64,000 nucleotides of DNA from Dehalococcoidia bacterium. Lineage in GTDB: Bacteria > Chloroflexota > Dehalococcoidia > UBA6926. Under the pieces are notes generated by a model. It worked only from the letters and a program-made list of their open reading frames with translations, was not told where the DNA came from and searched no databases. The DNA lies in the NCBI GenBank assembly GCA_965220565.1, contig CBDCQG010000001.1:691473-755472 (forward strand). The letters run 5' to 3'. This document shows positions 20,273 to 42,887 of the stretch, piece by piece (within the stretch, counting starts at the first letter, position 1; each line of letters opens with the position of its first letter). Position numbers and translations under genes: made by a program.

Positions 20273-20896
20273 CTATCTGACGCTCCACCATTTCACAGGG
20301 TTGTCCATGTCCAGTTCCTCCAGCGTTTCAAGCCGGATGATCCGGATCTTTGGCTCCTCCCCGCGATTCACCTCAAGCAGCCCCACTGTCCCGACAAGAT
20401 GATCAAGGTTGTGGGGCAGGGTAGGGCTTCCCGGGTTCACGCACAGCACGTCCCTGACCGTAACGACCTCCTCCGTGTGCGTGTCTCCGAAGACGATGAT
20501 GTCCACGGCACGTCCGAACTCGTGACCCATCACGGATTCGATGGTGCGATGCGGTGGAAACTCCGGAATCGCCAACCCGTGCGTCAATCCGATGGAGAAT
20601 CCCTCAACCTCCATCACGCGTGTGCGTTCGATGCGCGGGTCCGTGATCTTCCGGAAGAAATCACCATTCCCCTCGCACGCGTACACGGGCGCGGCGCGTT
20701 CCAGATCATCGAGGCATGACGGGCTGTAGATGTCGCCCGCATGGAGGATGAACTCTGCCCCCGCGCCGGAGAAAATCTCCAACGCGCTCTCCGGCAGCGC
20801 CAACGGCGCCTCCGGCACGTGCGTATCGGAAATCAGGCCGATGATCAAAAGGGTGTCTCGGTCACTTCCTGAGGGTGACGCGGGCGTCCTTCTCAC
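20273..20896 (-). CDS. YfcE-like metallophosphoesterase (calcineurin-like phosphodiesterase)
   Basis: It has the GLISDTH and GD...HGH motifs. 207 aa. Confidence 0.7.
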   Translation of the reverse strand: MRRTPASPSGSDRDTLLIIGLISDTHVPEAPLALPESALEIFSGAGAEFILHAGDIYSPSCLDDLERAAPVYACEGNGDFFRKITDPRIERTRVMEVEGFSIGLTHGLAIPEFPPHRTIESVMGHEFGRAVDIIVFGDTHTEEVVTVRDVLCVNPGSPTLPHNLDHLVGTVGLLEVNRGEEPKIRIIRLETLEELDMDNPVKWWSVR

Positions 20897-22103
20897 CGAC
20901 GACTATTCGTGATACCCCCAGCAGCACCACGTCACGCAGAAGGGAATGAAGCGCCATGTCCTCATCCGCCAATTGCAGAAGAGACTCGATTGCTGCCGTT
21001 GCGCTCCCGTGCGTCCGTGTCGCGTCTCGCAGCCGCCCCGCCTCGTGGAAGAGCAGTTGCGCCGCCGACCGAATATCCTGCGCCGGAAGTCGGCCCTTCG
21101 ACGCCTCCCGGGCCAGGCTGCTTATCCGCAGATCCACTGCTGCCTCGATCCGTGAGGCGATCCCGTCGAGGCCGACCCGTGCCAGCACCGCCGCGTCCAA
21201 CTCTCGTGAACGCCGTGTGTGGTACGAGCAGCGCCCCTGGTTCGTCGCAGCCTCGCACTGGTAGTAGCGGTATGTGTTGGACCCTGACGACCCGTCATTT
21301 CGCGTCCATGATTGGCGGCGTGTCACGCCCACCATATTGCTGCCGCATGCGCTGCAGATCGCCGTGCCGGACAGGAGGTACGGCCTTCCTGCGCCGTATC
21401 CTGCGCGTTTTGCCCGCTCGTCAAGCCGATCCTGGATCTCCCTGAACAACGGAGTTGACACGAGGGCAGGATGGTTTCCGGCAACGCGCGCGCCCAACCG
21501 GTTGTAGGCGCCGGTGTAGACGCGGTTTCGCAGCATGTCACGGATCGTGACGATGCTCCACGCGCCTCCCCGGCGTGTTCGCAGCCCGCGGGAATTCAGT
21601 TCCGCCACAATGGCGCGAATGCCTTTGCCCTGTGCCGCAAGCCCAAAGATGATCTTGACGACGGTCGCTTCCTCGGGGTGTTCTTCCAACTGACCGCGGT
21701 CGCCCGTCTTGTATCCATACGGAATCCGGCCCAGAACGACGCCGCGCAACGCCTTGCGCGCCATGCTCTGCCGGATCATCTCTCCCCGGTCTGAAGGCGC
21801 TGTGCCATTTTCGGGCGTCAGGGCGATCTCAAGCGGATGCCCCTGCGCTTCCACGGAGATCAGCTCAACGCCCATCGCTTCCAGGCGCAGCAGCTCTTCA
21901 ATGAGCCGGACCCGGGGAATACGATCCCCCGGTGAGATCATCACGGAGACCCCGGCCGTCTCTTTTTCCTCGATGAGTCGTTGGCGCAGAGCCCAAAAGC
22001 CGTCCTCGGTTGCCGCGTACATCCCGTCGAACGGCGCGTTGCCCTTTTCAGCCGCGCGATCAAGATCGCGGCGGTCTCCCACGCCAAATATGATACTTGC
22101 CAC
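20862..22103 (-). CDS. Large serine recombinase family protein (resolvase domain + recombinase domain + zinc ribbon), N-terminal catalytic motif apparently degenerate
   Basis: It has the resolvase-like VMISPGDRIPR block and a recombinase domain (IPYGYK...GAWS...IRDMLRNRVYTG). A C..C....C zinc-ribbon region is present. The expected N-terminal (Y)ARVST(D/E)Q nucleophile motif is absent, replaced by IIFGVGDRRDL. It overlaps the downstream gene by 35 nt. Confidence 0.6.
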   Translation of the reverse strand: MASIIFGVGDRRDLDRAAEKGNAPFDGMYAATEDGFWALRQRLIEEKETAGVSVMISPGDRIPRVRLIEELLRLEAMGVELISVEAQGHPLEIALTPENGTAPSDRGEMIRQSMARKALRGVVLGRIPYGYKTGDRGQLEEHPEEATVVKIIFGLAAQGKGIRAIVAELNSRGLRTRRGGAWSIVTIRDMLRNRVYTGAYNRLGARVAGNHPALVSTPLFREIQDRLDERAKRAGYGAGRPYLLSGTAICSACGSNMVGVTRRQSWTRNDGSSGSNTYRYYQCEAATNQGRCSYHTRRSRELDAAVLARVGLDGIASRIEAAVDLRISSLAREASKGRLPAQDIRSAAQLLFHEAGRLRDATRTHGSATAAIESLLQLADEDMALHSLLRDVVLLGVSRIVVGEKDARVTLRK

Positions 22104-28852: not shown

Positions 28853-29368
28853 CTACCCACCTACAAACCGCAGCAGCAGGCCGAGCAGGATGACGATCGG
28901 GCCGAGGACGAACAGGATGTTGGTGGGGGAGGCGAGGCGAGCCAGCGATGATCCGGCATCTGCAACGAGCCGTGTGAGAGGCCCGGGCAGGATCTCACTC
29001 CAAAGTCCTTCAACAGGGGACGAGCGACGACGGGGGCCTCTTCTGCTGAGCGAGATGGCGATGAGAAACATGGCTGCGGAGAGGACGAGCTTGACGGCCA
29101 GAATCACCGCGTAACCAAGGCCGATTTCCTGCGTGAGACGGTCATAGATAAGCAGCGCGCCGGTGATGATCAGCACCCACATCGAGAGATCGACAGTCTG
29201 CTTGAATCGTTCTCCAATCAGGCGGGGAAGATCGGGAGAGCCGACCCCGCTCTGCCGCATGGCAGGCCGCAACGCTGCCAGGTAGAAGATGTTGCCGCCC
29301 ACCCACGCGACGGTTGCGATGACGTGCGCCCACCGCGTGACAAGGACGGTCACTTCAAGAAAAGTCAT
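28853..29368 (-). CDS. Small polytopic membrane protein (DUF4149/CopD-like fold)
   Basis: 171-aa ORF with 4 predicted TM helices. Confidence 0.4.
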   Translation of the reverse strand: MTFLEVTVLVTRWAHVIATVAWVGGNIFYLAALRPAMRQSGVGSPDLPRLIGERFKQTVDLSMWVLIITGALLIYDRLTQEIGLGYAVILAVKLVLSAAMFLIAISLSRRGPRRRSSPVEGLWSEILPGPLTRLVADAGSSLARLASPTNILFVLGPIVILLGLLLRFVGG

Positions 29369-29440
29369 GGAGACAGTGTACGGGGAGGCGTGCAGAACCC
29401 GCGGACGGACCGCTAATCGTGTAACGACCGAAGCAGAACC

Positions 29441-30592
29441 CTAGACGCCAAGCGGTCGTCGGGCGTGTTCCAGATGTCCGACGTGGTGGCTTTCCTCATC
29501 GCATAGCTGAGTGGAGCGTTCGAGCTGCACGGTTACGTGGTCAATGCCATATCTTTGCTTGACAATGTCCTGCATCTGCTGAAGAAGTTCCTGATCGGAG
29601 CCCGGGTGCTCAGGTTCGATGAGCACGTGCGCGGTGAGCACCTCGTTGCCGGACGTAATCGTCCACACGTGCACGTCATGAATGACGGTCACCCCCGGCA
29701 GTTCTTCGATATCGGAGCAGAGTTTGTAAACGTCGATGTGCTCCGGCACTCCTTCCAGCAGCACGCGGAAGACCTGCATCACCAGGCTCCATGAGCTATA
29801 GAGAATGAGGAGGCCGATGACCACGCTGAGGATGGGGTCGATCAGCGTCCAGCCCGTCAGGATGATGACGATGCCTGAAATGACGACACCCACGGAACCC
29901 ATCAGGTCTGCCAGCACGTGCTGGAATGCGCCCTCCACGTTGATGCTGTGGCCGGATGAGCGGTGGAGAATCCATGCGGCGACAATGTTGACCAACAGAC
30001 CGCCGATACCGACGAGCAGAACCGGCCAGCCGTCCACATGGTGTTCGTCACGGATGAATCTGTGGTACGCCTCCCAGAAGATCCACCCGACGATCAGCCA
30101 CAGCGCCAGGGCGTTCATCAACGCCGCGAGTATCTCCGTTCGGTAGTAGCCGTACGTGCGCTCGATGGTGGCGCCGCGCTCCGCGATCCACATGGCGAAC
30201 AGCGCCATGCCGATTGCCGCGGCGTCCGTGAGCATGTGCCCGGCATCCGCGATGAGCGCCAGGCTTCCTGAAACGACGCCCCCGATAACCTCCGCGACCA
30301 TATAGGTCGAGATGAGGATCAGCGCAAAGAAGAGATTGCGGCGGCTTGCTCCCCGGAGATCGTGGGCGTGATCGTGGCCCGCGTGGCCGTGTCCATGGTC
30401 ATCATGGTCGTGGTCGTCGTGGCCGTCATGATCGTGGCCATCGTGGGTGTCATGGTCGTGGTCATCATGGGCGTCATGGTCGTGGTCATCATGGGCGTCA
30501 TGGTCGTGGTCATCATGAGCGTCATGATCATGATCTGCGTGTCGATGGTCTTCCTGGTCACTGCGAGCCATGGCGCTTCCGTCCCCTCTCAC
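29441..30592 (-). CDS. Cation diffusion facilitator (CDF) family metal efflux transporter with long His/Asp-rich N-terminal tail
   Basis: It has the CDF TM core (IADAGHMLTD, HVWTITSG) and the C-terminal cytoplasmic domain. The N-terminus carries about 60 aa of (H-D-D-H-D-H-D-A)n. Confidence 0.85.
   Translation of the reverse strand: MRGDGSAMARSDQEDHRHADHDHDAHDDHDHDAHDDHDHDAHDDHDHDTHDGHDHDGHDDHDHDDHGHGHAGHDHAHDLRGASRRNLFFALILISTYMVAEVIGGVVSGSLALIADAGHMLTDAAAIGMALFAMWIAERGATIERTYGYYRTEILAALMNALALWLIVGWIFWEAYHRFIRDEHHVDGWPVLLVGIGGLLVNIVAAWILHRSSGHSINVEGAFQHVLADLMGSVGVVISGIVIILTGWTLIDPILSVVIGLLILYSSWSLVMQVFRVLLEGVPEHIDVYKLCSDIEELPGVTVIHDVHVWTITSGNEVLTAHVLIEPEHPGSDQELLQQMQDIVKQRYGIDHVTVQLERSTQLCDEESHHVGHLEHARRPLGV
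30355..30540. repeat. 24-bp tandem repeat within the CDF gene (catggtcgtggtcatcatgggcgt x3 plus degenerate copies) encoding the HDDHDHDA repeats
   Basis: There are three perfect copies at 30451-30522, with decayed copies on both sides. Confidence 0.8.
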
Positions 30593-30714
30593 AGGACATC
30601 ACGTCCGCACTATAGGATCAACTATGTGTTCCGGAGTCTCTGCCTGGCCGTCCGGCAGCCATTGAACCGGATAGAAAACTCCGTGGCGCTCTGCTGGCGT
30701 GATTGGTCGGGTTG

Positions 30715-30762
30715 AGCCCCCGGGCCAAAAAACGAATAGCCACCGGAATCGGCGGCTATTCA
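30715..30762 (-). terminator. Rho-independent terminator downstream of the small His/Cys-rich peptide gene
   Basis: On the minus strand the hairpin GAATAGCCGCCG-attc-CGGTGGCTATTC is followed by GTTTTTTGG. Confidence 0.6.
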
Positions 30763-30780
30763 CTCAGTCGGCGGATGAAA

Positions 30781-30909
30781 CTAGCTGCCGTCCGCGTGGT
30801 GCTCGTGTTCATCGCACTCGTGCGGGTCATGCACGTGATTCGGCTCGTCTGCATGGTGCTCGTGCTCGTCGCACTCATGCTGATCGTGCTGATGTGCTGC
30901 GCTCGTCAT
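30781..30909 (-). CDS. 42-aa His/Cys/Glu-rich putative metal-binding peptide (internal duplication HECDEHEHHAD x2)
   Basis: The ATG at 30909 has a GGGAGG RBS 7 nt upstream. The product is MTSAAHQHDQHECDEHEHHADEPNHVHDPHECDEHEHHADGS. The gene has its own terminator. The ORF track's 108-aa version extends upstream without a plausible RBS. Confidence 0.6.
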   Translation of the reverse strand: MTSAAHQHDQHECDEHEHHADEPNHVHDPHECDEHEHHADGS

Positions 30910-31100
30910 CGCAACCTCCCATTTCCTTACGGCTGTCGGTTGTTCTGAATCCACTCTGTGCACGATGTAGATATGTGGCAAGGGTTTCGTGATACAAAGT
31001 ATCGCAATAGTCACTGACTGATATGAGGTATCCATAGGACAACCGAGGTTGCCGCAGGCCCCGCAAAGGGCGCGGCCCAGCCTGACTCCCCGCCCCCGTC

Positions 31101-31140
31101 CGCTCACCCTGAGCCTGTCGAAGGGCGAACGGACGGGCAG
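31101..31140. repeat. Interspersed repeat, family C (CTCACCCTGAGCCTGTCGAAGGGCGAACGG-like), intergenic
   Basis: cgctcaccctgagcctgtcgaagggcgaacggacgggcag. It resembles the widespread 'SLSKGE' type of small interspersed element. Confidence 0.5.
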
Positions 31141-31160
31141 GTTTTCTTACGGCTCTCCCG

Positions 31161-32072
31161 CTATGTCCGCGAGAGGCTTTGGACGTATTCCCGCACTGAC
31201 GCGGCGCACTCCTCAGGTCTCTCGAAGATCATGAAGTGGGAAGCTTCGGGCATGAAATCGTAGTTGATGCTGAGGATGTCGCTGAGGTCCATCGTCGGCA
31301 GATACGAGTAGGGCAGAGTGGGGTCGGCTCCCACCACCTTGACCGGACACACGATCTTGTCAAAGTCCACGGACACGGCGAAAACACCGGCATACTCAAC
31401 AACCTGCGCCTCATACTCGCGGGGGCACCGAAGTTCAAAGCCCTGTCCGTCGGCGGACTCGCCAAGAGTGGTCTCGGCCACGAGGGATGCGATTCCCGGG
31501 ACGACATTCTTGAATGTCGGCATAAACGGCAGCACGTCCGCAAAATCGGAACGCGTCTTGTATCGCTCAGTGCGCGTCCTGGTCAGATTGGCGGCGCGAG
31601 TCGCGGCAACCTCAAATTCTTCGTAGGACACACCCGGCCTGCAGACTGGCGGGTCGAACAGGTAGAGGCCGGATAGTCCATCCCCTCTTTGAGCGGATAG
31701 CAGGGCGACCAGCGCCGAGATGGAGTGGAAAACGCCAAAAGTAGGCTTGTCTCCATACTCCTCACGGATCGCGTCCAGCACCCGATCGTAATCACGGATG
31801 AACGTTGGGAGGTTGTGATTTGCAATGTCGCCCACGCTGTTCCAGCCATGATTTCTCAGGTCGTAGATGATGATGTCAAAGTCGTCCAGCAGGTTTGACC
31901 AGAACGGATAGTACAGGTCGATGGCCAGGCCGTTGCCATGGCACAGAATGAGTCGCGGCCCCTGGGGGTTGCCATGGCGTCTCAGCCGGATGACTGTGTT
32001 CTCATCGACCGTCACGTCATGGACGGACGTCGGCTCAGGAACCTGCCAGACAGGCTGGGGCGTTTCGGTCAC
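31161..32072 (-). CDS. Alpha/beta hydrolase (candidate chain-release thioesterase/hydrolase of the PKS operon)
   Basis: It has an HGNG oxyanion region and a GxSxG-like nucleophile elbow (VFHSISALV). 303 aa. It overlaps the PPTase gene by 4 nt. Confidence 0.65.
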   Translation of the reverse strand: MTETPQPVWQVPEPTSVHDVTVDENTVIRLRRHGNPQGPRLILCHGNGLAIDLYYPFWSNLLDDFDIIIYDLRNHGWNSVGDIANHNLPTFIRDYDRVLDAIREEYGDKPTFGVFHSISALVALLSAQRGDGLSGLYLFDPPVCRPGVSYEEFEVAATRAANLTRTRTERYKTRSDFADVLPFMPTFKNVVPGIASLVAETTLGESADGQGFELRCPREYEAQVVEYAGVFAVSVDFDKIVCPVKVVGADPTLPYSYLPTMDLSDILSINYDFMPEASHFMIFERPEECAASVREYVQSLSRT

Positions 32073-32866
32073 GCGAGCGCGTCCTCAATCCGGGACGACG
32101 GCACCGCTTCAATGGCGAGCGCGCCGACGAAATCGCCGGCGCTGAACCTGTGCAGCCGCCAGCACACATCCGGGAACTCCGGCAGTCGGACCTGGCCGGT
32201 GACTGCGCCTCCGCGCATGGCGGCCGGTGTTTCTATGCACTGCAGGTTCGCGGAGAGACCGATGCCGGTGGCCTTGATGATTGCCTCCTTGAGGGTCCAT
32301 ATCTCAAAGAATGCTCGTGCGTCAAAGTCTCTGTCCGTGCTTGAAACCGCAGCCTGCTCCTTCGTACTGAAAGTCGATTCGATGATTGCATCAAATCGGA
32401 ATTCCTGGTTGATCTCTTCGATATCGATGCCAACCTGGTGATCCGGCGAAATGGCTAGGACGCCATGGTCGCCGCTATGACTCACATTAAAGTGGAGCGG
32501 TGCGGGGACCCCGTCGACGTATGCCCGCGGCTTGCCTCGTTCCACCCAGCCAAACTCAAGCTCCTCATTGTCGCAGTTGAGAGTGTCGCAGAGAACCGCT
32601 CGCAGCGCGGCGCGGCTGAGCGCAAAACGCCGCCTCGGAGCCCCGGGGTGATAGCGTGTCCATCGTTCGCGTTCCCAGTCGTTCAGGAACTGCAAAGCCC
32701 CGGACTCTCGCGCCGCGTCCGGCGACAGATCGACATGAGTAACATCGACGCCGTCAAACTGCGCGAAGCAAGACCACCACTGATTGGCTGTGTTGGTGCC
32801 CATCGCTTCAATTGTATGCGGATAATTGCGATTCGGACTAATTGACGCCAAGAGGGAGCAGCCCAT
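32069..32866 (-). CDS. Sfp-type 4'-phosphopantetheinyl transferase
   Basis: It has the FNVSHSGDHGVLAIS and GIDIEEI motifs. 265 aa as called, so the start is uncertain. Confidence 0.75.
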   Translation of the reverse strand: MGCSLLASISPNRNYPHTIEAMGTNTANQWWSCFAQFDGVDVTHVDLSPDAARESGALQFLNDWERERWTRYHPGAPRRRFALSRAALRAVLCDTLNCDNEELEFGWVERGKPRAYVDGVPAPLHFNVSHSGDHGVLAISPDHQVGIDIEEINQEFRFDAIIESTFSTKEQAAVSSTDRDFDARAFFEIWTLKEAIIKATGIGLSANLQCIETPAAMRGGAVTGQVRLPEFPDVCWRLHRFSAGDFVGALAIEAVPSSRIEDALA

Positions 32867-32933
32867 GACTGCTCCCTCTCGCTTTGGCGCCCTTATTTCA
32901 AGTGGCCGCTTCTTGAAAGTGTGGGTGCGTGAA

Positions 32934-33179
32934 TCACGCAGCCTTCGATTCGATATAACCGATCAGATCGCCGACATTGGAGAAATTAGCGAAATCTTCA
33001 GGCGCAAGTGTGATGTTGAATTCGTCAGCCACGAGCTTGGCGAACGCAACCACCTGTGCCGACGCGACACCCGCGTCCGCAAAATTCAGTCCCATATCGA
33101 CGGGGCTGTTGGCTTCGCGCCCCTCGATCTCCAGGTTCTCGTCAATCAGCTTGCGAACCCTCTCTTCGGTTGTTGCCAT
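32934..33179 (-). CDS. Discrete acyl carrier protein (ACP/PCP-like)
   Basis: The 81-aa product starts from the ATG at 33179 with an AAGGAG RBS 8 nt upstream. It has a four-helix carrier-protein pattern. The region around the expected phosphopantetheine Ser is atypical (LNFADAGVAS). Confidence 0.55.
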   Translation of the reverse strand: MATTEERVRKLIDENLEIEGREANSPVDMGLNFADAGVASAQVVAFAKLVADEFNITLAPEDFANFSNVGDLIGYIESKAA

Positions 33180-33240
33180 TTTCAGGCTCCTTTCTCGTAA
33201 GCGAATCGCGACCAATTCTCATCCAATCGTTACGTAGAGT

Positions 33241-36200
33241 TTATCGTTTTACGGCTTTCTTCTCCACCCAGAACCGTCGACGCTGGAACGGGTAGCCGGG
33301 CAGCCTGATCTTTCGTCGTTCCTCCCCGGTGAATAGCCTGCTGAAGTCCACGTCATGCCCCGCCTCATAGGCCCGGGCCATGGCGTCCACCGTGCCAGAA
33401 TCCGTGTCGCCTGTGCTATCCACTGCCGCTGACTCGCTATCCCGGGTACCCGTTTCCTGTCCGGTGTCACCGGACGGAGAACCGGCATCCACAAGGCGTT
33501 CGAGGCCGCTCCGCAGCTCGTCTTGGTCTCTGAAAATCACGCACGCACGATGTGTAAAGTGACTTCGGCCGATGGACGCCGTCCACGCCATGTCTGCGAG
33601 CATGTCCGCAGTTGAGGCGCCGTCTTGGCCGCCATTGTCCAGCCACTCCAGGTAACTCGCTGCGAGGTCGCTCAGCGCGGCAGGATTCTTTGCCGAAAGG
33701 GGCAGAAGGCGTGCCGGCGGCTTTGTGGTCGCTTGCAGGTCGTCGGGGTTCAAACCGTTCTCAGCCGTGTAGCCTTCCACAATGACGTGCGCATTCGCGC
33801 CCGTCATGCCAAAGGTATTGATCCCGGCAATAGGGGCACGCGCGCCGTTGCCCGGCCACTCCTCCGCGTCCAGGGCAATCTGCAAAGGCATCTTCTTCCA
33901 ATCAATCTCCGGGCTTGGCGTGCTGAAATGGAGATGCCTGGGGATGAGATTGCGATTCATGGACAGCACGACCTTGATGAGGCTGGCCATGCCGGAGGCC
34001 GCTTCAAGGTGACCCACGTTCGTCTTGACTGATCCAAGGGTCAGCGGTTGGTCGCCGGGCCTGTCCTTCCCGTACACGTTTGCAATGGCATTCGCCTCAA
34101 TCGAATCGCCAAGTGGCGTCCCGGTCCCGTGAGCCTCAAGGTAATCAACGTCGGACGCAGAGATGCCGGACCTCTCCAGCGCCTCTCGCATAACCTTTTC
34201 CTGCGCCACGCCATTGGGGCTCGTGAAACTGAATCCCGCGCCATTCTGGTTGACTGCGGAACCCCGTACGACGCCCCAGATGCGATCCCCGTCTCTCTCC
34301 GCGTCGCCAAGCCGCTTGAGTATGACGAAACCGCAACCCTCGCCGCGCACGTAACCGTCGCCGGACGCGTCGAAGCTCGCCGTCTTGCCGCTCAGAGACA
34401 GCACGCCCAATTCCGCAAGGAACGTTGACGTTGACTGCGACAGCGCGATGTTCACGCCTCCCGCCAGGGCAAGATCAACCTCTCCGCGCTGCAGGGAGAC
34501 CACGCCCTGGTGCACTGCGGCGAGCGATGACGTGCAGGCAAGGTCGATCGGCACGGCAGGCCCTTGCAGCCCGAACGTGAACGCGATCCGGCCGACGGCC
34601 ATGCTTGGAATGGTTCCAAAGATGTCCTGGCCGCCGTTCATGGCAAGCACACTGCGGTACTCGCTGCCGCTGATGCCGGCATAGACGCCGGTTTGGCTTC
34701 CGCGCAATGCGTCCGGGTCGATCCCCGCATCCTCCAGCGCCTGCCACGCTGTTTCGAGGAGTAGGCGCTGCTGCGGGTCCATGGTGCGGGCCTCGATAGG
34801 CGCAATGCGGAAGAATCGGGCGTCGAATTCGTCAATATGATCCAGGAACGCGCCAAGACGCTCATAGGTGTTCTGCGCGGCGGGATCCCCAAAAACGCCC
34901 CTGTAGTCGCCGCCGTCCGTGCGCCCGTCCGTAACGGCGGACTCGCCGTTCTCAAGCAGACGCCAGAAGGCATCGAGGTTCTCTGACCCCGGGAAACGAC
35001 AGGCCATGCCGACGATGGCGATCGCATCGTCACCCGGACGCGGGCGCGGAGGCGACTCCGGCGTCCGCTCGTCTGCGGCGGCAACAGTTGTCGTGCTGCC
35101 GGCAGCCGCCCCCGGTTCACCGACTTCCTCGGCCAGATAAACTGCCAGCCGCGTGATGCTTGGGTAGTCAAAGACCACGGTGTTGGGCGCGACATAGAGA
35201 CCTTTGAGAGCGCTGTTGATGTTGTTCCTCAAAGCCACCGCCATGAGTGAGTCCATGCCAAGATCGGAGAACTCTGCTCCCGGGTTTGGTTGGGAGGGCA
35301 TGCGCATGATCGCCTGCAATTCATGCTGCAGAAACTCGGTAAACACGCTTTCGCGCTGCTCCAACGGCACGCCGCTGAGGCGGGCAGGCAAGTCATCCAT
35401 GGAGTCACCCGCCGAGGCAGAATCAGACTCGTCGGCAGCCGTGAATCTCTGCAGCATCGCCGGCGGATTCTGCATGTTTGACCGTATTGATTCCCAGTCG
35501 ATGGCGACGGCAACCGAATTGGTCCAGTCCTGCTTGATCAGGAACTCCAGCGTTTCAATGCCGCGTTCCGGCGTGATCCACCGGGAGCCTCTCTCTGCAA
35601 GCAGCTCGCCGATCCTCTCCCGCTGCTCCTCTGCCTCGCCAACCTCCGACCATGCGCCCCACGCGATCGCCTGGCCGGTCAGCCCCAGAGCCCGGCGATG
35701 TCGAACCAACTGGTCAAGGAATGTGTTGGCCGCGGCGTGATTCGACTGCCCCGGGTTCCCGAGGATTCCCGCCGCGCTTGAGAAAAGCACAAAGAGATCG
35801 AGGTCTCGATCCATCGTGGCGCGATGCAGATGCCATGCGCCCAAAACCTTTGGCCGGAGAATCTGCTCGAATCGCTCCCACGTTTGATTGCCGACCACGC
35901 CGTCCGAAAGCACACCAACGCTATGGATGACACCCGCGAGCGGCGGCAGTGATTGGTCGATACGCGTGAGCATTGCGTCGATTGCAGTGCTGTCCGTCAC
36001 GTCTGCAATCTCAACCTGTACGGTGACGCCGCGGGCGCGCAACTCGTCTATCGCATCCTGCGCTTCCGGGTCAGGATCACGCCGGCCGTTGAGCACGATT
36101 GCTCCTGCGCCCTTGTCCGCGAGCCAGCGCGCGACGGTGATGCCAATTCCGCCCAGTCCGCCGGTGATGAGGTATGTGCCGTCTTCTCGCAGGCGTTCAG

Positions 36201-39200
36201 TCTGGAGAGGAGAGTTGGCCAGCGCGATCTTGCCGATGTGCCGGGTATCGCGCATGTACGTGATTGCAGCCGGTGCCTCAGACAATGACCAGCGGGTGTG
36301 CGGGATGGGGGCGAGTGTGCCTGCCTCCATGTCCCGCAGCACCGTCTTCAGTGCCGCGCCGGGTATTTCCGGCTCTTCTCTCTTCAGCCGATCGAGCATG
36401 ATGATGTGGTAATCGACGTCGGGACGCTGTTCGGCCATCTCCTCTTCGGTCAGGATGCCCTCGCGGGCCAACTCGATGAAGCGGCCATTCTGCGCCAGGC
36501 AGGACAGGCTGGCGTCGATGAATCCCTCGCCGGTCAGGCTGTTGAGTACGACGTCGACGCCTTTGCCGCCGGTGTCGCGGAGTATCTCTTCCGCAAACTC
36601 TGTCGAGCGGCTGTTGTAGACGTGCGTGATTCCGAGTGACCTGAGGTACGGCTGCTTGCCGATGCTTGCCGTCGTATAGATCTCCGCGCCTACAGCCTTC
36701 GCCATCTCGATGGCTGCCAGACCCACGCCCCCGGAACCCGCGTGGATGAGCACCGTGTCGCCGGCCTGTAGACGCGCGAGGTCATAGGAAAGGGCGACGG
36801 TCACGAATGCGGTTGGTGCGGAGCCAAGACCCGTCTTCGATATGTTGGGCGGGGCGGAAGCGACAAGTGCCTCCTTGGTGATGATCTCCGGCCCAAACGT
36901 GCTGAACCCGATCCCGGCGACGCGATCCCCAACGGAGACGGAAGAAACGCCATCTCCGATTTCAATGATCTTGCCGACAAATTCCAGTCCGAGGTTGTCT
37001 TCACGTTCGATGCCAATGCTGATGAGCACGTCACGGAAATTGACGCCCACGGCCTCCATTGCGACACGAACCTCATGTGTTTCCAGTTCACGATGTGACT
37101 CAGGCTGCGGATGGACACGGCCGGGGTCGCCTGTTTCATCCGGCATAAGGAACCATTGGCCTTCGTCGGGCAGGGTGAGCCTTTCCGGTACATCGTCTGT
37201 GCGCGCCAACCGGGCAACCAGTCGATAGCCTGATCGGAGCGCGATGTGATTTTCGCCATCGGGCCGCAGCAGTTCATCAACAAGGTCGGCCAGGCGCGGG
37301 CTGTCGCCATCCAGGTCAACAACCTTGGGCTGAAGATCCGCAAGTTCCCTGATGATGACTCTGCCAAATCCCCAGAGGATCGCGCCGGCGGGCTGCGTGA
37401 ACTGCTCCCGTCGGGTGTCTTGCGCGCCTCGTGTCACAAGCCAGGCGCCGCTCTTTGGTTCCGAATTAGAGTCCAGGAGGCCCTGAACCATGGCCAGCGC
37501 GCTCGAACCAACTCGCCGGATGTCATCAGCGAGCCCGTCGGCGTCGATGTCTGACCCGTTCCCGCTCGTGGCAGCCAGGTGGACAACTCCTCGCAGCGGA
37601 ACGTCCTCTGGCAGACTCGCAAAGATCGATCCCCACGCCTCGCGGTCTCCCCTGTCAACGGCTATGCGTGAAACACCGTCAACGGAGCCATCCTCATGTG
37701 GCGCGCCTGCGCCTTTCTCGGTCACAACCAGGACGAGTTGGCTCCGAGACGCCAGTTCAGCCGCCAACTCGTCGGCCATGCCGTCGTCATCCGCGGCGAG
37801 CACCCAGGAACCCGGCTGCTCGACGATCTCGGCAGGGGCAGCGGCGATGATGACGGCGCGGTCAGGACGCTCCGACGAGTCACTCGTCCTGAGGCCGAGA
37901 ACCTGCGGGTCCTCAAAGGCCGTGTCCAGCAGCGCCTGTTCCCAGACGTCAGCGCCCGCAACACCGTGATTGGGCCGATAATGATCGGCAAATCGCCACC
38001 ACCCGTCCAGCGTTCCGAATGTCACGTCCTGCCATCCCTGGCCCTGGATCGACTCAATCGCGACGAGGTGGCCGGACGGCGCGAGAAGTGTCAGACAGTT
38101 CTGCAGGGTCTCGCTGAGAGAGATGGTGTCATGGAGCACGTTGGAGGCGATGACAAGGTCATAGCCGTGAGCGTCAAATCCCTGCTCGGCGGGATCGAGT
38201 TCGATGTTGAGAGGCATGTACGTTATCGCGCCGTCGGCAGTCCCAAATTGTGACTCCGCCTCCGCGAAGAATCCGGCGGAGATATCCGTGTACACGTACT
38301 CAAACCGGCCCTCAGGAAGCTGCGGCAGCACGGACATCGTGGCTGAGCCCGTGCCCGCTCCCACCTCGACAATGCGCAGTGTTCGCGTCTCGGGCAGATT
38401 CTCCAGCAGCGCGGCAATTGTGTCGCGAAGCATGTTGTTGACTGCGCGGGATGCGGGCGTTCGTATGAAGATGTCGGCGGGTGTAGGATCGCCGCTCCCG
38501 AACAACACCGTCAGCGGATCAGCCTGCCCGCGCAGAATATCCGCCAACTCTCCCGCAGCTCGACGGCACAGCGCCACCTCGATGGAGCCGTGAGGATAAC
38601 GCTCCAGCATCTCTGCGGCGAAGGCGTCCGGGTCAGTCGGCAGTTCACCCGGCAGAGAATCCTCTGGGCCAACCAGAACGTGGAAAGCGTCACCGGATTC
38701 TTGCAGGACGCCCGCCCGCGCAAGCAGCTCAAGGATTCTCCTGAACAGCTTGCTGTGCTCGTCCGTGACGCCCAATTCCCGCCTCAGGGTTTCCGGCTCG
38801 ATAACCGCGCCTGCCGTCTGTTGCCAGCCGAGCTTGGTCAGGGTGTCAAGCGCGAATGACCACGAAAGTCGTTCAAGATCGCGCAAAAGCGCGGTTCGAT
38901 CGCTCCAGTCCACGCCTTCCTGCGACAGATACTCCGCGAACGCCGGTGTAGTGGCCTGGATGGAGGACGGTTCCGGCAGGAAATCGGCGGGCTGCACGGG
39001 AGGCAACGGGCAGTCCTCCCAGACGATGTCGTACAGGAGGTCCTGCACGCTCTCCTCCGTCGAGAGCACGCTATCGCGGCTTGCCCGCTTAGCTGTAAAT
39101 CCTGTGATTCCTCCGAGCCGCTCACCTTCCGTCGAATAGATCTCAAGGTCCGCTGCGATGACCTCCGGCACAGTCCGTGCGCCGGAGGCGTCTGCCTGAT

Positions 39201-42200
39201 TGGCGGCTCTCAAGGTTGCGCGGCAGACAACCCTCTCGGGCAAGCCGCCGCTGAGCCACAATCGGTCCCATGCAAAGGGGAGATATGTCGTGCCGCTTGC
39301 CGTCTCATGCGTGGCGCGAGCCGCCGAAACGACCTGCAAGCATGCGTCAAGCAGGATGGGGTGGACGGCCAGGCCGGTGTTGCTCAGTCCCTCCGGCAAG
39401 CTGACCTCTCCGACTGCCATGCCGTTGCCCGTGAATGCCGAATCCACCGTGCGGAACAGGGGACCGAAGTCCAGGTTTGCCTCGCGCTTTGCCCGGTAGA
39501 ACTCTGAAATATCAAGCGATTCCAGGCCGGCCTTCAGGTCGTCAATGGTCACGCGCTCCGCAGCATCAGTGTTATCTGTTGCCGACGACAGCGTGCCCCG
39601 CGCGTGCAGAGTCCACGATTCCTCGCCGCTTCCCTTGCTGTAGATTTCAAACTCGCGAGCGCCTGAGTCGTCCGGAGCCTGCACCATGATTTGCACGGCG
39701 CGCGCACTATCGTCAGGCGAACTCTCCTCATCGGCCTCGCTGAACAGCAGCGGCGCCTGCATCTGCATGTCGTCGATGACGACTCCGCCGGACTCCTCCG
39801 CCCGGAACGCCTCCACAGCCATGACGCCATAGAGGGCCCCTGGCGCGATAACCCGGCCATACACACGGTGGTCGCTCAGCCAGGCGGGATCGTCTGGCAA
39901 CAACTCAGTCTCGAAATAAATCTCTCCGCGCGGCGATTCATGGCGCGTTCCGAGCAGTGGATGATCCGTTGAGGCTCTCTGCCGACGAGGCTCTTCGACC
40001 CAATGGCGATACCGCTGGAACGGATACTCCGGTACGGGAACCCGTCGCCGCGTCTCACCCGCATAGAGGTCACGGAAATCGATAGAAAGCCCGGCCTCGT
40101 ATGCAGCCTTAACCGCGGAGATGAAACCGCGAGTCTGGTCGATTGGCGGCTCGGTTTCATCGTGCGGCGGCCTGACCATGCTGGCAATAACCGGGGGGTC
40201 CTTGGCCGGAGCGCCCGGCGGCCAGCACATGGAGACAATCGCCCCAATGACTGCGCCCGGCCCGATCTCGATGACAAAATCGACTCCAAGTTCTGCCAGC
40301 GATTCAACGCTGGTTCGATACAGGACCTTCTCCCGTGAATGACGCATCCAATAGGCGGCATCGATGGGGACATCCGGATCAACCGGCTTGCCCGTCGCGC
40401 CGCAAATGAACTCGATCTGCGGTGCTCTAGGCTCCTTGACAATTTCACGGACTCTCTCCCCGAGCGGTTCGAGCATCGGCTCCAGCAGACTGCTATGGAA
40501 TGCCGGGCTGGGCGGCATACGCCTAACCCGAACTTCCTTAGCCTCGAATTTCTCGAGGACTGCCTCAACATCCGGTTCAGGCCCGCTGACGACGTGGTTG
40601 ATGCCGTTGTCAACGGCAATCGTCAGCCGGTTGTCGCCGGAGACCTGCTGTTGTTCCGCGATGGCCTCCTGCACGGCGGCCTCTGGAGCGAATACCACGC
40701 CCATTGCCGCACCAAGCGGGAGTCCGCTCATCAACTCTCCGCGCGCAGCAGTGAGGCGGATACCCTCTTCCAGGGTGAACACGCCGGCTGCTTGCGCCGC
40801 CGCGTATTCTCCGAGGCTGTGACCGGCGACCACGGCGGGCGTGACGCCGATGCTCTTCCAGAGGGCAGTGAGCGCGCACTCCACCGCGTAGATAGTGGGC
40901 ATGGCCCATCTCGAATCATCGAGGTCATCTGCCTTGCCGAACATGACATCGAGCAGGGAGACCCCGCGCTCTTTTTTGATGATGCGATCACAGCGGTCGA
41001 GCACGTCTCGCGCAACAGGCTCCGTCTCGTAGAGCGCTTGCGCCATACCCACCCACTGGCTGCCCTGTCCGGTGTAGACAAATCCGATCCTGGCGGGGCT
41101 GCCGACGGGAGATTGAGGAGTCGATTCAATAAGGTTGCTGAGGCCATCCCTCAGTGAGGCGGCTTCGCGGAACGGGATAGCGGCCCGGTAACGGAAATGG
41201 CTGCGGCCGATGCTTGCGGTCCAGGACATATCAGATAGGGCAGGGTCGGATGCCGCAGTCTCCGGAGGCGGGCCTCCCGATGTTTCGTCCAGCGCATTGA
41301 GGTAACGCTCTGCCAGTTCTTGCAGGCTCTCCGGCGACCGTGCGGAAAGCGGCAGCAATCGTGTCGGGCGCTGTGTGACATCCGCAGTGTCGTCAGAAAG
41401 TTGGGTCTCCACCTCGACAGCGGCGCCCACTGGCCACATCGTTGCTGCGCGTGATGCCGGTGCGCTGGCGGGCGCGCCGTACCCCTCGACGATGATGTGC
41501 GCGTTCGTGCCCGACCATCCGAAACCGCTGACACCGGCGCGTGGCGGCCTGCCATCAACTTTCGGCCACTCGGTTGCCTCGGTCGGCACGCGCAGATTGG
41601 CGTTCTCCCAGTCGATCGCCGTTGTGGGGTTCTCAAAATTCAGGTGCTTGGGGATGACGCCGCGCCGCATTCCCAGCACGACCTTCATGACGCCCGCGGC
41701 TCCCGACGCAGGTTCAAGGTGCCCGAAATTCGTCTTGACGGAGCCGATGAACATTGGTTGATCGGCCGGTCGCTGATTTCCATATGCGGCGGTGGCTGCG
41801 CTCAACTCCGCCGGGTCGCCCACCGGCGTGGCGGTTCCGTGCGCCTCCAGGTAGTCCACGTCCACCGGTGTAAGGCCGGCCGAGGACAGCGCATCGCGGA
41901 TGACATTCTCTTGTGACGACGCGCTCGGCACGGTGATGCCCTGGCTCGCGCCGTCCTGGTTGATGGCGGAGCCGCGGATCACACCCCAGATGCGGTCGCC
42001 GTCCCGCTCGGCGTCGCTCAGGCGCTTGAGAACAAGAACCCCGCAGCCCTCGCCGCGGAGGTAGCCGTCCGCGGCCTCGTCAAAGGTGCGGCACACGCCG
42101 TTCGGCGACAGCATCCCTGCTTGCCTGCGCAGATTCATGACCCTCGCGGAAAGGATGGCGTTGACGCCTCCGGCCAGGGCCAGGTTCGCCTCTCCGCGAT

Positions 42201-42813
42201 TCAGGGCGATTACAGCCTGGTGCATGGCAACCAGGGACGATGAGCACGCTGTATCTATGGAAATCGCGGGTCCTTCAAGTCCCAGCGCGTATGACACGCG
42301 GCCAATGGCGGTGTTGAGACTGCTTCCGCTGGCCGCATAGAGGCTGGTGGCAGGATCGTCCGCTTCAATGGACGCGATGGCCGCATACCGGTATTCGGCG
42401 TTGCTTATGCCGCCATAGACGCCGGTGCGCGTTCCCCTGAGACTCTCCGGATCGATGCCCGCGTCTTCAAGGGCACGCCAGCTGGTTTCGAGCATCAGGC
42501 GCTGCTGCGGGTCCAGCAGCTGCGCCTCTACCGGTGAGATTCTGAAGAATTCCGCATCGAACTTGTCGATATCCTCAATGAAAGCCGCGTAGTGCGTGGT
42601 GTCGCTCTGCGTCGGTGGAAGTTCCAGGAACTGACCCATGCGGCCGGGGCTGCCGGAGCCGATCATGCCCTCCGTCCGCACCATCGTCCCGGAGGCCAGC
42701 AAACGCCAGTAAGCGTCGTAGTCCTCGGCTCCGGGAAAGCGGCATGCCATGCCGATGATAGCGATGGGTTCGTTTGCTGCCATACCGCCTCCGAGTTTCA
42801 GGTGGGCTGACAT
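33241..42813 (-). CDS. Type I highly reducing polyketide synthase, 3190 aa: KS-AT-DH-cMT-(psiKR)-ER-KR-ACP-KS(AT-less)
   Basis: KS1 has DTACSSSL / EAHGTAT / NFGHLE. The AT has GHSLGE. The DH has HRVYGRVIAPGA. The C-MT has VEVGAGTGS. The ER has LIHAGSGGVGLAAIEMA. The KR has ITGGLGGIGITVARWL. The ACP has DLGMDSLMAV. KS2 has DLACTSSL / EAHGTGT / NVGHLE. After KS2 come the KS-AT linker and the post-AT YPFQRRRFW linker, but no AT core. Confidence 0.9.
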   Translation of the reverse strand: MSAHLKLGGGMAANEPIAIIGMACRFPGAEDYDAYWRLLASGTMVRTEGMIGSGSPGRMGQFLELPPTQSDTTHYAAFIEDIDKFDAEFFRISPVEAQLLDPQQRLMLETSWRALEDAGIDPESLRGTRTGVYGGISNAEYRYAAIASIEADDPATSLYAASGSSLNTAIGRVSYALGLEGPAISIDTACSSSLVAMHQAVIALNRGEANLALAGGVNAILSARVMNLRRQAGMLSPNGVCRTFDEAADGYLRGEGCGVLVLKRLSDAERDGDRIWGVIRGSAINQDGASQGITVPSASSQENVIRDALSSAGLTPVDVDYLEAHGTATPVGDPAELSAATAAYGNQRPADQPMFIGSVKTNFGHLEPASGAAGVMKVVLGMRRGVIPKHLNFENPTTAIDWENANLRVPTEATEWPKVDGRPPRAGVSGFGWSGTNAHIIVEGYGAPASAPASRAATMWPVGAAVEVETQLSDDTADVTQRPTRLLPLSARSPESLQELAERYLNALDETSGGPPPETAASDPALSDMSWTASIGRSHFRYRAAIPFREAASLRDGLSNLIESTPQSPVGSPARIGFVYTGQGSQWVGMAQALYETEPVARDVLDRCDRIIKKERGVSLLDVMFGKADDLDDSRWAMPTIYAVECALTALWKSIGVTPAVVAGHSLGEYAAAQAAGVFTLEEGIRLTAARGELMSGLPLGAAMGVVFAPEAAVQEAIAEQQQVSGDNRLTIAVDNGINHVVSGPEPDVEAVLEKFEAKEVRVRRMPPSPAFHSSLLEPMLEPLGERVREIVKEPRAPQIEFICGATGKPVDPDVPIDAAYWMRHSREKVLYRTSVESLAELGVDFVIEIGPGAVIGAIVSMCWPPGAPAKDPPVIASMVRPPHDETEPPIDQTRGFISAVKAAYEAGLSIDFRDLYAGETRRRVPVPEYPFQRYRHWVEEPRRQRASTDHPLLGTRHESPRGEIYFETELLPDDPAWLSDHRVYGRVIAPGALYGVMAVEAFRAEESGGVVIDDMQMQAPLLFSEADEESSPDDSARAVQIMVQAPDDSGAREFEIYSKGSGEESWTLHARGTLSSATDNTDAAERVTIDDLKAGLESLDISEFYRAKREANLDFGPLFRTVDSAFTGNGMAVGEVSLPEGLSNTGLAVHPILLDACLQVVSAARATHETASGTTYLPFAWDRLWLSGGLPERVVCRATLRAANQADASGARTVPEVIAADLEIYSTEGERLGGITGFTAKRASRDSVLSTEESVQDLLYDIVWEDCPLPPVQPADFLPEPSSIQATTPAFAEYLSQEGVDWSDRTALLRDLERLSWSFALDTLTKLGWQQTAGAVIEPETLRRELGVTDEHSKLFRRILELLARAGVLQESGDAFHVLVGPEDSLPGELPTDPDAFAAEMLERYPHGSIEVALCRRAAGELADILRGQADPLTVLFGSGDPTPADIFIRTPASRAVNNMLRDTIAALLENLPETRTLRIVEVGAGTGSATMSVLPQLPEGRFEYVYTDISAGFFAEAESQFGTADGAITYMPLNIELDPAEQGFDAHGYDLVIASNVLHDTISLSETLQNCLTLLAPSGHLVAIESIQGQGWQDVTFGTLDGWWRFADHYRPNHGVAGADVWEQALLDTAFEDPQVLGLRTSDSSERPDRAVIIAAAPAEIVEQPGSWVLAADDDGMADELAAELASRSQLVLVVTEKGAGAPHEDGSVDGVSRIAVDRGDREAWGSIFASLPEDVPLRGVVHLAATSGNGSDIDADGLADDIRRVGSSALAMVQGLLDSNSEPKSGAWLVTRGAQDTRREQFTQPAGAILWGFGRVIIRELADLQPKVVDLDGDSPRLADLVDELLRPDGENHIALRSGYRLVARLARTDDVPERLTLPDEGQWFLMPDETGDPGRVHPQPESHRELETHEVRVAMEAVGVNFRDVLISIGIEREDNLGLEFVGKIIEIGDGVSSVSVGDRVAGIGFSTFGPEIITKEALVASAPPNISKTGLGSAPTAFVTVALSYDLARLQAGDTVLIHAGSGGVGLAAIEMAKAVGAEIYTTASIGKQPYLRSLGITHVYNSRSTEFAEEILRDTGGKGVDVVLNSLTGEGFIDASLSCLAQNGRFIELAREGILTEEEMAEQRPDVDYHIIMLDRLKREEPEIPGAALKTVLRDMEAGTLAPIPHTRWSLSEAPAAITYMRDTRHIGKIALANSPLQTERLREDGTYLITGGLGGIGITVARWLADKGAGAIVLNGRRDPDPEAQDAIDELRARGVTVQVEIADVTDSTAIDAMLTRIDQSLPPLAGVIHSVGVLSDGVVGNQTWERFEQILRPKVLGAWHLHRATMDRDLDLFVLFSSAAGILGNPGQSNHAAANTFLDQLVRHRRALGLTGQAIAWGAWSEVGEAEEQRERIGELLAERGSRWITPERGIETLEFLIKQDWTNSVAVAIDWESIRSNMQNPPAMLQRFTAADESDSASAGDSMDDLPARLSGVPLEQRESVFTEFLQHELQAIMRMPSQPNPGAEFSDLGMDSLMAVALRNNINSALKGLYVAPNTVVFDYPSITRLAVYLAEEVGEPGAAAGSTTTVAAADERTPESPPRPRPGDDAIAIVGMACRFPGSENLDAFWRLLENGESAVTDGRTDGGDYRGVFGDPAAQNTYERLGAFLDHIDEFDARFFRIAPIEARTMDPQQRLLLETAWQALEDAGIDPDALRGSQTGVYAGISGSEYRSVLAMNGGQDIFGTIPSMAVGRIAFTFGLQGPAVPIDLACTSSLAAVHQGVVSLQRGEVDLALAGGVNIALSQSTSTFLAELGVLSLSGKTASFDASGDGYVRGEGCGFVILKRLGDAERDGDRIWGVVRGSAVNQNGAGFSFTSPNGVAQEKVMREALERSGISASDVDYLEAHGTGTPLGDSIEANAIANVYGKDRPGDQPLTLGSVKTNVGHLEAASGMASLIKVVLSMNRNLIPRHLHFSTPSPEIDWKKMPLQIALDAEEWPGNGARAPIAGINTFGMTGANAHVIVEGYTAENGLNPDDLQATTKPPARLLPLSAKNPAALSDLAASYLEWLDNGGQDGASTADMLADMAWTASIGRSHFTHRACVIFRDQDELRSGLERLVDAGSPSGDTGQETGTRDSESAAVDSTGDTDSGTVDAMARAYEAGHDVDFSRLFTGEERRKIRLPGYPFQRRRFWVEKKAVKR

Positions 42814-42887
42814 CTCTGGCTACACTATAGTCACTTTAACCTGACGCCTGTGGCCTGAATAAAGCGGGGTACACAATCAGAACACCA

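Follow-up and report, generated by a model that had tools for sequence, protein, structure and literature searches.

Helicobacter Hpn and Hpn-like are very small, very His-rich, Cys-containing cytoplasmic proteins which buffer or store metals, and this is also how the peptide family described below is read; Hpn features poly-His runs and Cys pairs, binds nickel, and is found in Helicobacter only. In the CopZ/CopA system a metal-binding module occurs both as a free protein beside the pump and as a fused N-terminal domain. The route followed by zinc from the cytosol to exporters of the cation diffusion facilitator (CDF) type is unsettled; to our knowledge bacterial CDFs have not been reported to have a dedicated chaperone, and literature searches found none. 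In S. coelicolor one sensor controls zinc import and export, and the CDF gene zitB is activated by Zn-Zur, the box being located 8 nt upstream of the -35 hexamer TTGCCC (PMC5472717). Two Zur boxes mark the promoter of bmtA, a metallothionein gene of Synechococcus sp. WH8102 which is also Zur-activated (PMC9337993). Here we describe a locus of a Dehalococcoidia bacterium (GenBank assembly GCA_965220565.1), residing in a stretch of 64,000 nucleotides, hereafter called the window (contig CBDCQG010000001.1, positions 691,473 to 755,472), in which a 42-aa His/Cys-rich protein is encoded by a separate micro-gene next to a ZitB/CzcD-like CDF, and suggest that it may serve as a zinc buffer or donor for the exporter.

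The micro-gene spans from an ATG at 30909 to a TAG at 30783..30781 of the minus strand. Its product, MTSAAHQHDQHECDEHEHHADEPNHVHDPHECDEHEHHADGS, contains 12 His (29% of the residues), 2 Cys, 6 Asp and 7 Glu, and potential metal ligands make up 27 of the 42 residues. The peptide is made by two HxHDxHECDEHEHH modules with ADEPN as joint, and the string HECDEHEHHAD, described as duplicated in the initial annotation of this DNA, is found twice. The longest His run measures 2, the CC pair is absent, and neither a signal peptide nor a hydrophobic stretch was found in the peptide sequence. The ribosome-binding site (RBS) GGGAGG proposed in that annotation is present, at a distance of 5 nt, rather than 7, from the ATG. 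GGAGG is found at the equivalent position in orthologues, as ahead of most family members, and the arrangement GGAGG-TTGC(A/G)-ATG is kept in all relatives compared, while the frame upstream of the ATG is broken by stop codons in some orthologous loci. For these reasons the 42-aa version is held to be right, and the 108-aa open reading frame (ORF) listed for the same region, already viewed as implausible, was discarded as an artefact.

Selection was analyzed by comparing the window with five orthologous loci reached via the CDF (L001, L002, L003, L005, L006). Pairwise pN/pS values of the micro-gene range from 0.02 to 0.12, and variable sites at codon positions 1, 2 and 3 number 3, 3 and 25, respectively. 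The invariant columns of the homologue alignment are His, Glu, Cys and Asp. With RBS, start codon and terminator kept as well, the micro-ORF is, as had been supposed, a genuine gene with signals of its own, and purifying selection on it is strong. Modelling by AlphaFold2 (AF2) on a 16-sequence family alignment gave no secondary structure (pLDDT 52, pTM 0.14); the low score may denote a peptide folding only around metal, and an uninformative alignment would look alike.

The micro-gene is followed by an intrinsic terminator. The hairpin GAATAGCCGCC-GATTCC-GGTGGCTATTC, which begins about 16 nt past the stop codon, contains GC pairs and is directly followed by GTTTTTT, providing a U6 tract. The stem measures 14–16 bp and the loop 4–6 nt, depending on the closure of the stem. 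The folding energy is -29.5 kcal/mol (z = -6.1), and none of 200 shuffled sequences folds equally well. The hairpin is kept in 6 orthologous loci, where one-sided and some two-sided compensatory changes are found. In plus-strand RNA the hairpin is weaker and the T-tract absent, so that the terminator is assigned to the micro-gene transcript, in agreement with the earlier proposal. A simple promoter/terminator scan of the region listed nothing, this hairpin included.

Association of the peptide gene with the CDF gene was assessed by scanning 80 genome loci around CDF relatives in six frames for the module. Of the 46 closest CDF loci (CDF identity 46–91%), 23 have a separate family gene within 4 kb of the CDF, and the 34 more distant, actinobacterial loci have none; the conservation of the micro-gene beside the CDF envisaged at the outset is thus borne out among the closest relatives. 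In 18 loci the arrangement is that of the window, with the peptide gene upstream and on the CDF strand; one locus has it downstream, on that strand too. It is convergent with the CDF in L007, L013, L026 and L029, as also at the family members P0017 and P0009. In three loci (L008, L023, L041) 1–2 modules precede the His/Asp tail as an in-frame fusion to the CDF N-terminus; in L023 and L041 the fusion coexists with a separate family gene, and the module is found in some form in 24 of the 46 loci. Conservation of the neighbourhood in either orientation and the repeated fusion argue that peptide and pump may act jointly at the cytoplasmic face of the membrane.

The CDF itself starts at a conserved ATG at 30571 (MARSD...), not at the GTG of the ORF list, 210 nt beyond the stop of the micro-gene. 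Pfam matches (Cation_efflux PF01545, 4e-46; ZT_dimer PF16916, 2.9e-11) and TIGR01297 (295 bits, cut-off 82) mark the protein as a CDF. The best specific NCBIfam model is ZitB (NF002923), reached with 285 bits vs a cut-off of 408, which makes the protein ZitB-like and not a ZitB equivalog; the DmeF and MntE models score 107 and 79 bits, respectively. The HD-HD transport site recognized by motif (H112-MLT-D116 and H218-VLA-D222) is that of Zn-type CDFs (ZitB/CzcD/ZnT group), in which HxxxD motifs of TM2 and TM5 make up a tetrahedral site. The HD-HD arrangement is proper of the Zn/Co/Cd group of CDF families.

The N-terminal 74 residues of the CDF, presumed to be cytoplasmic by analogy with solved CDF structures, include 25 His and 27 Asp. 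The core of this tail is made by 24-bp units, each encoding an octapeptide H(D/A)(D/G)HDHD(A/T/G/D). TRF reports a period of 24, with 5.5 copies and 88% matches, at 30394–30526. That the tail is built of 24-bp tandem repeats is correct, and their description as perfect was overstated, since only units 2 and 3 are identical at the DNA level, unit 4 being off by 1 nt. A 24-bp array is found in the tail of every orthologue, in 2.8 (L001), 2.9–3.8 (L004), 3.5 (L005), 5.5 (window), 6.7 (L002), 7.5 (L006) and 8.2 (L003) copies. The tail varies in length from 50 to 93 aa among orthologues, and the remaining protein is 79–91% identical. The tail is hypervariable between related species, as the initial annotation had anticipated.

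Putative signals for transcription of the micro-gene are located between 30953 and 31033 (Table 1). The -10 hexamer ends 43 nt before the ATG, and the layout of this candidate promoter is kept in orthologous loci; it was missed in the consensus scan because the -10 matches at 3 of 6 positions only. Two palindromic boxes of the Fur-family type reside upstream. The 15-mer TGATAC-N3-GTATCA, a 7-1-7 palindrome, departs from the Fur-family consensus TGATAATNATTATCA by a single position in each half-site. Exactly 8 nt separate the proximal box from the -35, in the window as in L001, L002, L003, L005 and L006, and the same layout, with ATGCCA, was seen by eye in L091. Within the window clade the -35 downstream of the two boxes is good and the -10 poor. 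A box is found within 250 nt upstream of the peptide start in 11 of 28 family loci, against a random mean of 0.6, and none of 5000 trials reached 11. The 11 box-bearing loci correspond to about four lineages (the window clade, L016/19/20/23, L017 and L009). The promoter block shared by the micro-gene loci, and the conserved -10-like hexamer that the CDF has of its own, led us to conclude that the two genes are probably separate transcription units.

Table 1. Features of the micro-gene and CDF locus, in order of transcription (window coordinates)
Feature	Position	Strand	Basis or details
Putative distal Fur-family (Zur-like) 7-1-7 box GGATACCTCATATCA	31019..31033	minus	2 mismatches to TGATAC-N3-GTATCA; kept in L001, L002, L003, L006
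Putative proximal Fur-family (Zur-like) box CGATACTTTGTATCA	30990..31004	minus	13-nt core GATACAAAGTATC matches the palindrome perfectly
Candidate micro-gene promoter	30953..30981	minus	-35 TTGCCA (30981..30976), 17-nt spacer, weak -10 CAGAGT (30958..30953)
Shine-Dalgarno GGGAGG	30915..30920	minus	Sequence and conservation
Micro-gene, 42-aa protein, stop included	30781..30909	minus	ORF reading, homologues, selection, invariant columns
Intrinsic terminator of the micro-gene	30727..30764	minus	Folding and conservation
CDF -10-like TATAGT	30614..30609	minus	37 nt before the CDF ATG; TATACT/TATAAT/TATAGT in orthologous loci
Small palindrome GGACGTGATGTCC in the CDF leader	30606..30594	minus	GGAC-N5-GTCC conserved
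Six 24-bp units, core of the N-terminal His/Asp tail	30398..30541	minus	TRF and in-register reading
CDF exporter, 376 aa, ZitB/CzcD-like	29441..30571	minus	Pfam, NCBIfam, site motifs

The nature of the boxes is suggested by their distribution. In L035, where the match is perfect, and in L010 and L031, a box is flanked by a FUR-family gene on one side and a znuA-znuC-znuB operon on the other; the start of the FUR-family gene has further copies, and in L026 a box lies just upstream of znuA. In L010 (2951–8836) a 6-module peptide gene, CDF, FUR-family regulator, znuA, znuC and znuB are consecutive, forming a putative complete zinc island, and L026, L031 and L035 are similar. The ZnuA proteins of these loci feature long acidic/His loops. 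Such loops are typical of zinc-specific ZnuA members. Because of the boxes at fur-family/znuACB loci, and of their enrichment before peptide genes, the boxes are taken as putative Zur-type operators, and the metal is presumed to be zinc. By analogy with the zitB and bmtA promoters induction at zinc surplus is favoured; Zur would then activate rather than repress the micro-gene.

The reading that we prefer, and regard as reasonably probable, is that the peptide, under Zur control and induced at zinc surplus, acts in metallothionein-like fashion as a buffer of zinc or as its donor to a ZitB/CzcD-type exporter. Under such conditions Zn-Zur would occupy both boxes and activate the weak promoter. 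A short, terminated, monocistronic transcript would be made, and from it an abundant 42-aa cytoplasmic peptide, which, probably unfolded in the absence of metal, would bind several Zn(II) ions through His, Cys and carboxylates. The peptide would buffer the cytosol, and either feed the N-terminal (HDDHDHDA)n tail of the CDF or work in parallel; zinc would then be expelled by the HD-HD CDF. The peptide may be viewed as the free-standing version of the metal-capturing domain fused to the exporter in some relatives, and metal may pass from it to the CDF. A bolder proposal, which we advance tentatively and think less than probable, is that HECD-module micro-proteins are dedicated trans-acting zinc donors for CDFs, corresponding to a detachable N-terminal domain, and are induced by Zn-Zur. 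If true, they would be the first metallochaperone-like partner of a bacterial CDF, and a new class of His-based zinc buffers spread among sponge symbionts of two phyla.

Several data weigh against a zinc buffer under Zur control. Boxes are missing in 17 of the 28 family loci, and none is found in the 210 nt ahead of the CDF. In L010, L031 and L035 the box overlaps the znuA start codon, and its conservation could be partly coding. Matches of the regulators to the Fur, PerR and Zur models are all weak, and the Fur-family proteins fall below every NCBIfam equivalog cut-off, so that the name Zur is taken from the znuACB neighbourhood alone. In L016/19/20/23 some 50 nt separate the boxes from the best -35, and the proximal box is directly adjoined by a -10-like hexamer, an arrangement which would fit repression. 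The HD-HD site and the His/Cys ligands are also compatible with Co, Ni and Cd. Finally, members of the P0004/P0015 subfamily have resolvase and transposase genes as neighbours, and the nearest 5 kb contain no CDF.

Other explanations were considered. A chance, functionless low-complexity ORF would account for the strongly biased composition, the lack of a fold in the AF2 model and the lack of a database family match; this is refuted by the comparative data, namely purifying selection, the conserved start codon, RBS and terminator, and presence in two phyla, the linkage being kept, and can be practically dismissed. A short ORF with its RBS, a terminator 16 nt past the stop and, after 210 nt, a CDF in the same orientation also recall a regulatory leader peptide, the translation of which would control termination, and hence read-through into the CDF, by His/Cys-tRNA charging or metal-dependent stalling. 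A Thr_leader match was found, far below threshold (16.8 bits vs a gathering score of 55, E = 5.6). The leader ORF of an attenuator is expected to lie always upstream and on the same strand, and in six loci (L007, L013, L026, L029, L081, L086) the family gene and the CDF face each other in convergent orientation; elsewhere the gene stands alone. The amino-acid sequence is conserved across phyla beyond the codon content, the gene may reach 144 aa, and modules are also fused to the CDF protein. No conserved alternative pairing, as required by mutually exclusive terminator and antiterminator structures, was seen in the window and the orthologous loci; the sole alternative upstream hairpin (GAUGAA/UUCAUC) is missing from L001, and the CDF has a conserved -10-like element of its own. 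The leader-peptide attenuator was rejected on these grounds, its probability being very low; partial read-through of the terminator may occur as a side effect.

As to the metal, the peptide might store or detoxify Ni/Co (or Cd) in the manner of Helicobacter Hpn/Hpn-like, the CDF being a Co/Ni exporter. His-rich proteins often bind Ni, and the peptide is rich in His and contains Cys; HD-HD CDFs such as CzcD are known to move also Co and Cd, and the CDF partially matches DmeF. The ZitB score is far above that of DmeF, though, the recurring neighbours are fur-family/znuACB genes, with ZnuA carrying acidic/His loops, and neither Ni enzymes or Ni chaperones nor a NiCo riboswitch turned up in the region of the window or among 16 related loci. 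Rfam searches of the 29300–31300 interval at a permissive threshold gave sub-threshold noise only, with no NiCo/czcD or other metal riboswitch, and at the gathering threshold the 16 related loci yielded only a tRNA and a thiamine pyrophosphate (TPP) riboswitch, both elsewhere. We regard Ni/Co as quite unlikely. Of the Zn/Ni/Co buffering module proposed in the initial annotation, metal handling stands as the best reading, and is refined to zinc by the ZitB-like CDF, the zur-like/znuACB neighbours and the boxes. The sign of regulation might also be the opposite, Zn-Zur repressing the gene and the peptide being made under zinc limitation as a cytoplasmic reservoir, scavenger or delivery factor; it would then resemble Zur-repressed COG0523 or His-rich chaperones, not a surplus export buffer. 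Repression is the usual action of Zur (PMC6103462; PMC5472717), znuA and fur-family genes, which are expected to be repressed, have boxes of the same type, and in the L019/L020/L023 clade TATACT or TATAAT directly abuts the proximal box. On the other hand, in the window clade the best -35/-10 is found entirely downstream of the boxes, at the 8-nt spacing known from the Zur-activated zitB, the conserved partner is an exporter and not an importer, modules are fused to the exporter N-terminus in three loci, and a strong cytosolic chelator would be of no obvious benefit in zinc starvation. Repression is accordingly judged unlikely, and surplus induction of a zinc buffer is retained as the preferred reading.

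The micro-gene belongs to a narrow family. A word-indexed search identified 20 homologous proteins of 35–69 aa, all with a duplicated module, and a profile search covering the whole set of 1.84 billion cluster representatives retained only 31 of them at E <= 0.001. The repeat unit of the family is HxHDxHECDxHEHH, present in 2, 4, 6, 8 or 9 copies per member; the links between units are short AH(V/E)HD alternating with longer GDEPGHVHD. No Pfam family was found at E <= 1 for the window peptide or four other members, and no match in NCBIfam or PDB sequence searches of the peptide and longer family members. Nothing specific to the motif string or to His-rich CDF partners was returned by searches of the literature. 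The prediction that standard annotation would miss the gene was correct in part: gene callers had already found family members in many metagenome assemblies, in some cases with false N-terminal extensions (P0001, P0013, P0014), and none of the sources consulted supplies a name for them. P0022, grouped in the P0004 cluster, is an unrelated 419-aa protein.

The hosts are Dehalococcoidia metagenome-assembled genomes (MAGs), and one Acidimicrobiia MAG (family Candidatus Spongiisociaceae); from the style of several MAG names, they may be sponge-associated. In the Acidimicrobiia locus (L041, 3695–5186) a CDF with two fused HECD modules is found, with a separate 4-module gene just downstream, which suggests transfer of the pair between phyla sharing a habitat. 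Proteins of the P0004/P0015 type form a subfamily with a C-terminal GDKELVAAG-type tail (L087–L090, 5001–5162; L083–L085, 5001–5153); P0004 is present on 41 contigs, and Pfam gave no assignment for the neighbours of this CDF-independent subfamily. The L007 gene (5122–5260, minus strand) has a stop (MQ-TAA) where L015 (3280–3406) has MQK, and its last module is degenerate; the gene is probably decaying. A conserved leader of roughly 100 nt is common to L007 and L015; it contains a hairpin (ATAGAAG...CTTCTAT), comes after a TTGACA promoter, and has no match in Rfam.

Other features of the locus can be summarized as follows. The CDF leader contains a conserved palindrome, GGAC-N5-GTCC, which lies between the -10-like hexamer and the RBS and reads GGACTTGATGTCC in relatives; these promoter and leader elements may be functional. 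A membrane ORF of 171 aa (28853–29368, minus strand) with sub-threshold CopD, UPF0093 and Urate_ox_N matches lies directly downstream of the CDF. A counterpart of this CopD-like ORF was found in none of the 80 CDF loci, and it was excluded from the module. A large serine recombinase (Recombinase and Zn_ribbon_recom; 20862–22103, minus strand) is encoded some 7 kb away from the CDF, which may indicate a mobile region in the vicinity.

On the opposite side, the window includes genes on the minus strand for an alpha/beta-type hydrolase (31161–32072), a phosphopantetheinyl transferase (PPTase; 32069–32866), and a 93-aa ORF resembling acyl carrier proteins (ACP; 32934–33215), followed by a single 3190-aa polyketide synthase (PKS; 33241–42813, minus strand) with the layout KS-AT-DH-MT-ER-KR-ACP-KS and a divergent SulP permease (42888–44504). 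The layout of this region (31161–44504) may resemble that of small 'sup' PKS clusters of sponge symbionts. PPTase and hydrolase genes are found upstream of the micro-gene only in L001–3, 5 and 6, where a divergent gene for a 154-aa VOC-like protein (3-dmu-9_3-mt) intervenes between hydrolase and micro-gene. In the window (31037–31160, compared with 2811–3443 in L001) this gene has been lost, leaving about 110 nt of GC-rich DNA, and homology resumes at 31036, beside the distal box. In more distant loci the neighbours are unrelated. The functional link to the PKS/SulP island suggested earlier is thus not upheld, and the proximity is best described as clade-level synteny, not a functional module.

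Since the module family occurs both free beside the CDF and fused to it, it offers a directly testable candidate for the delivery of zinc to these exporters. It would also add a second example, unrelated to the first in phylum and in chemistry, to the storage or buffer proteins under a Fur-family zinc sensor. Being short, the peptides can be synthesized, which makes the stoichiometry and affinity of binding and the transfer to the CDF measurable despite the hosts being uncultured, and the 24-bp repeat tails provide a natural tail-length series for structure-function work.

In kind, the family resembles metallothioneins, Hpn and exporter His-tails. Like the bacterial metallothioneins SmtA/BmtA, the peptide would be a small, cytoplasmic, ligand-dense protein storing or buffering zinc, and like Synechococcus bmtA, which is activated by the sensor that represses znuABC (PMC9337993), its gene is preceded by two boxes, here putative ones. 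No sequence relation is seen to SmtA/BmtA, as no match was found in Pfam, the bacterial metallothionein model included, or in PDB. The ligands of the peptide are mostly His and carboxylates, each module contributing a single Cys (2 Cys in 42 residues), in contrast to the Cys-rich Zn4 (Cys9His2) cluster, and its family is modular (2–9 repeats) and tied to an exporter gene. Compared by description, Hpn differs in lacking the periodic HxHDxHECDxHEHH module, the zinc context and the CDF partner.

The promoter recalls that of S. coelicolor zitB, where a 7-1-7 box is located 8 nt upstream of a TTGCC(A/C) -35, with a weak -10, in a zinc-export locus (PMC5472717). In the window, unlike in zitB, the boxed promoter would drive the micro-gene, a terminator separates the latter from the CDF, and two discrete boxes are found 29 bp apart; binding and activation are predicted here. 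The (HDDHDHDA)n tail is ordinary of its kind, as His-rich tails and loops are found at the N-termini of CzcD/ZitB and in ZnT loops, and a lineage-specific loop expansion has been reported for RcnA in cable bacteria (PMC11247825). It differs from other His-tails in being a 24-bp array, varying from 2.8 to 8.2 copies among species-level relatives, and residing beside a separate HECD-module protein. The occurrence of one module both free and fused to the pump is shared with CopZ and the N-terminal domains of P1B-ATPases, from which fold, ligands, metal and transporter class all differ. HECD-module proteins are thus a narrow, unannotated family of modular His/Cys micro-proteins, new in sequence, module design and partnership.

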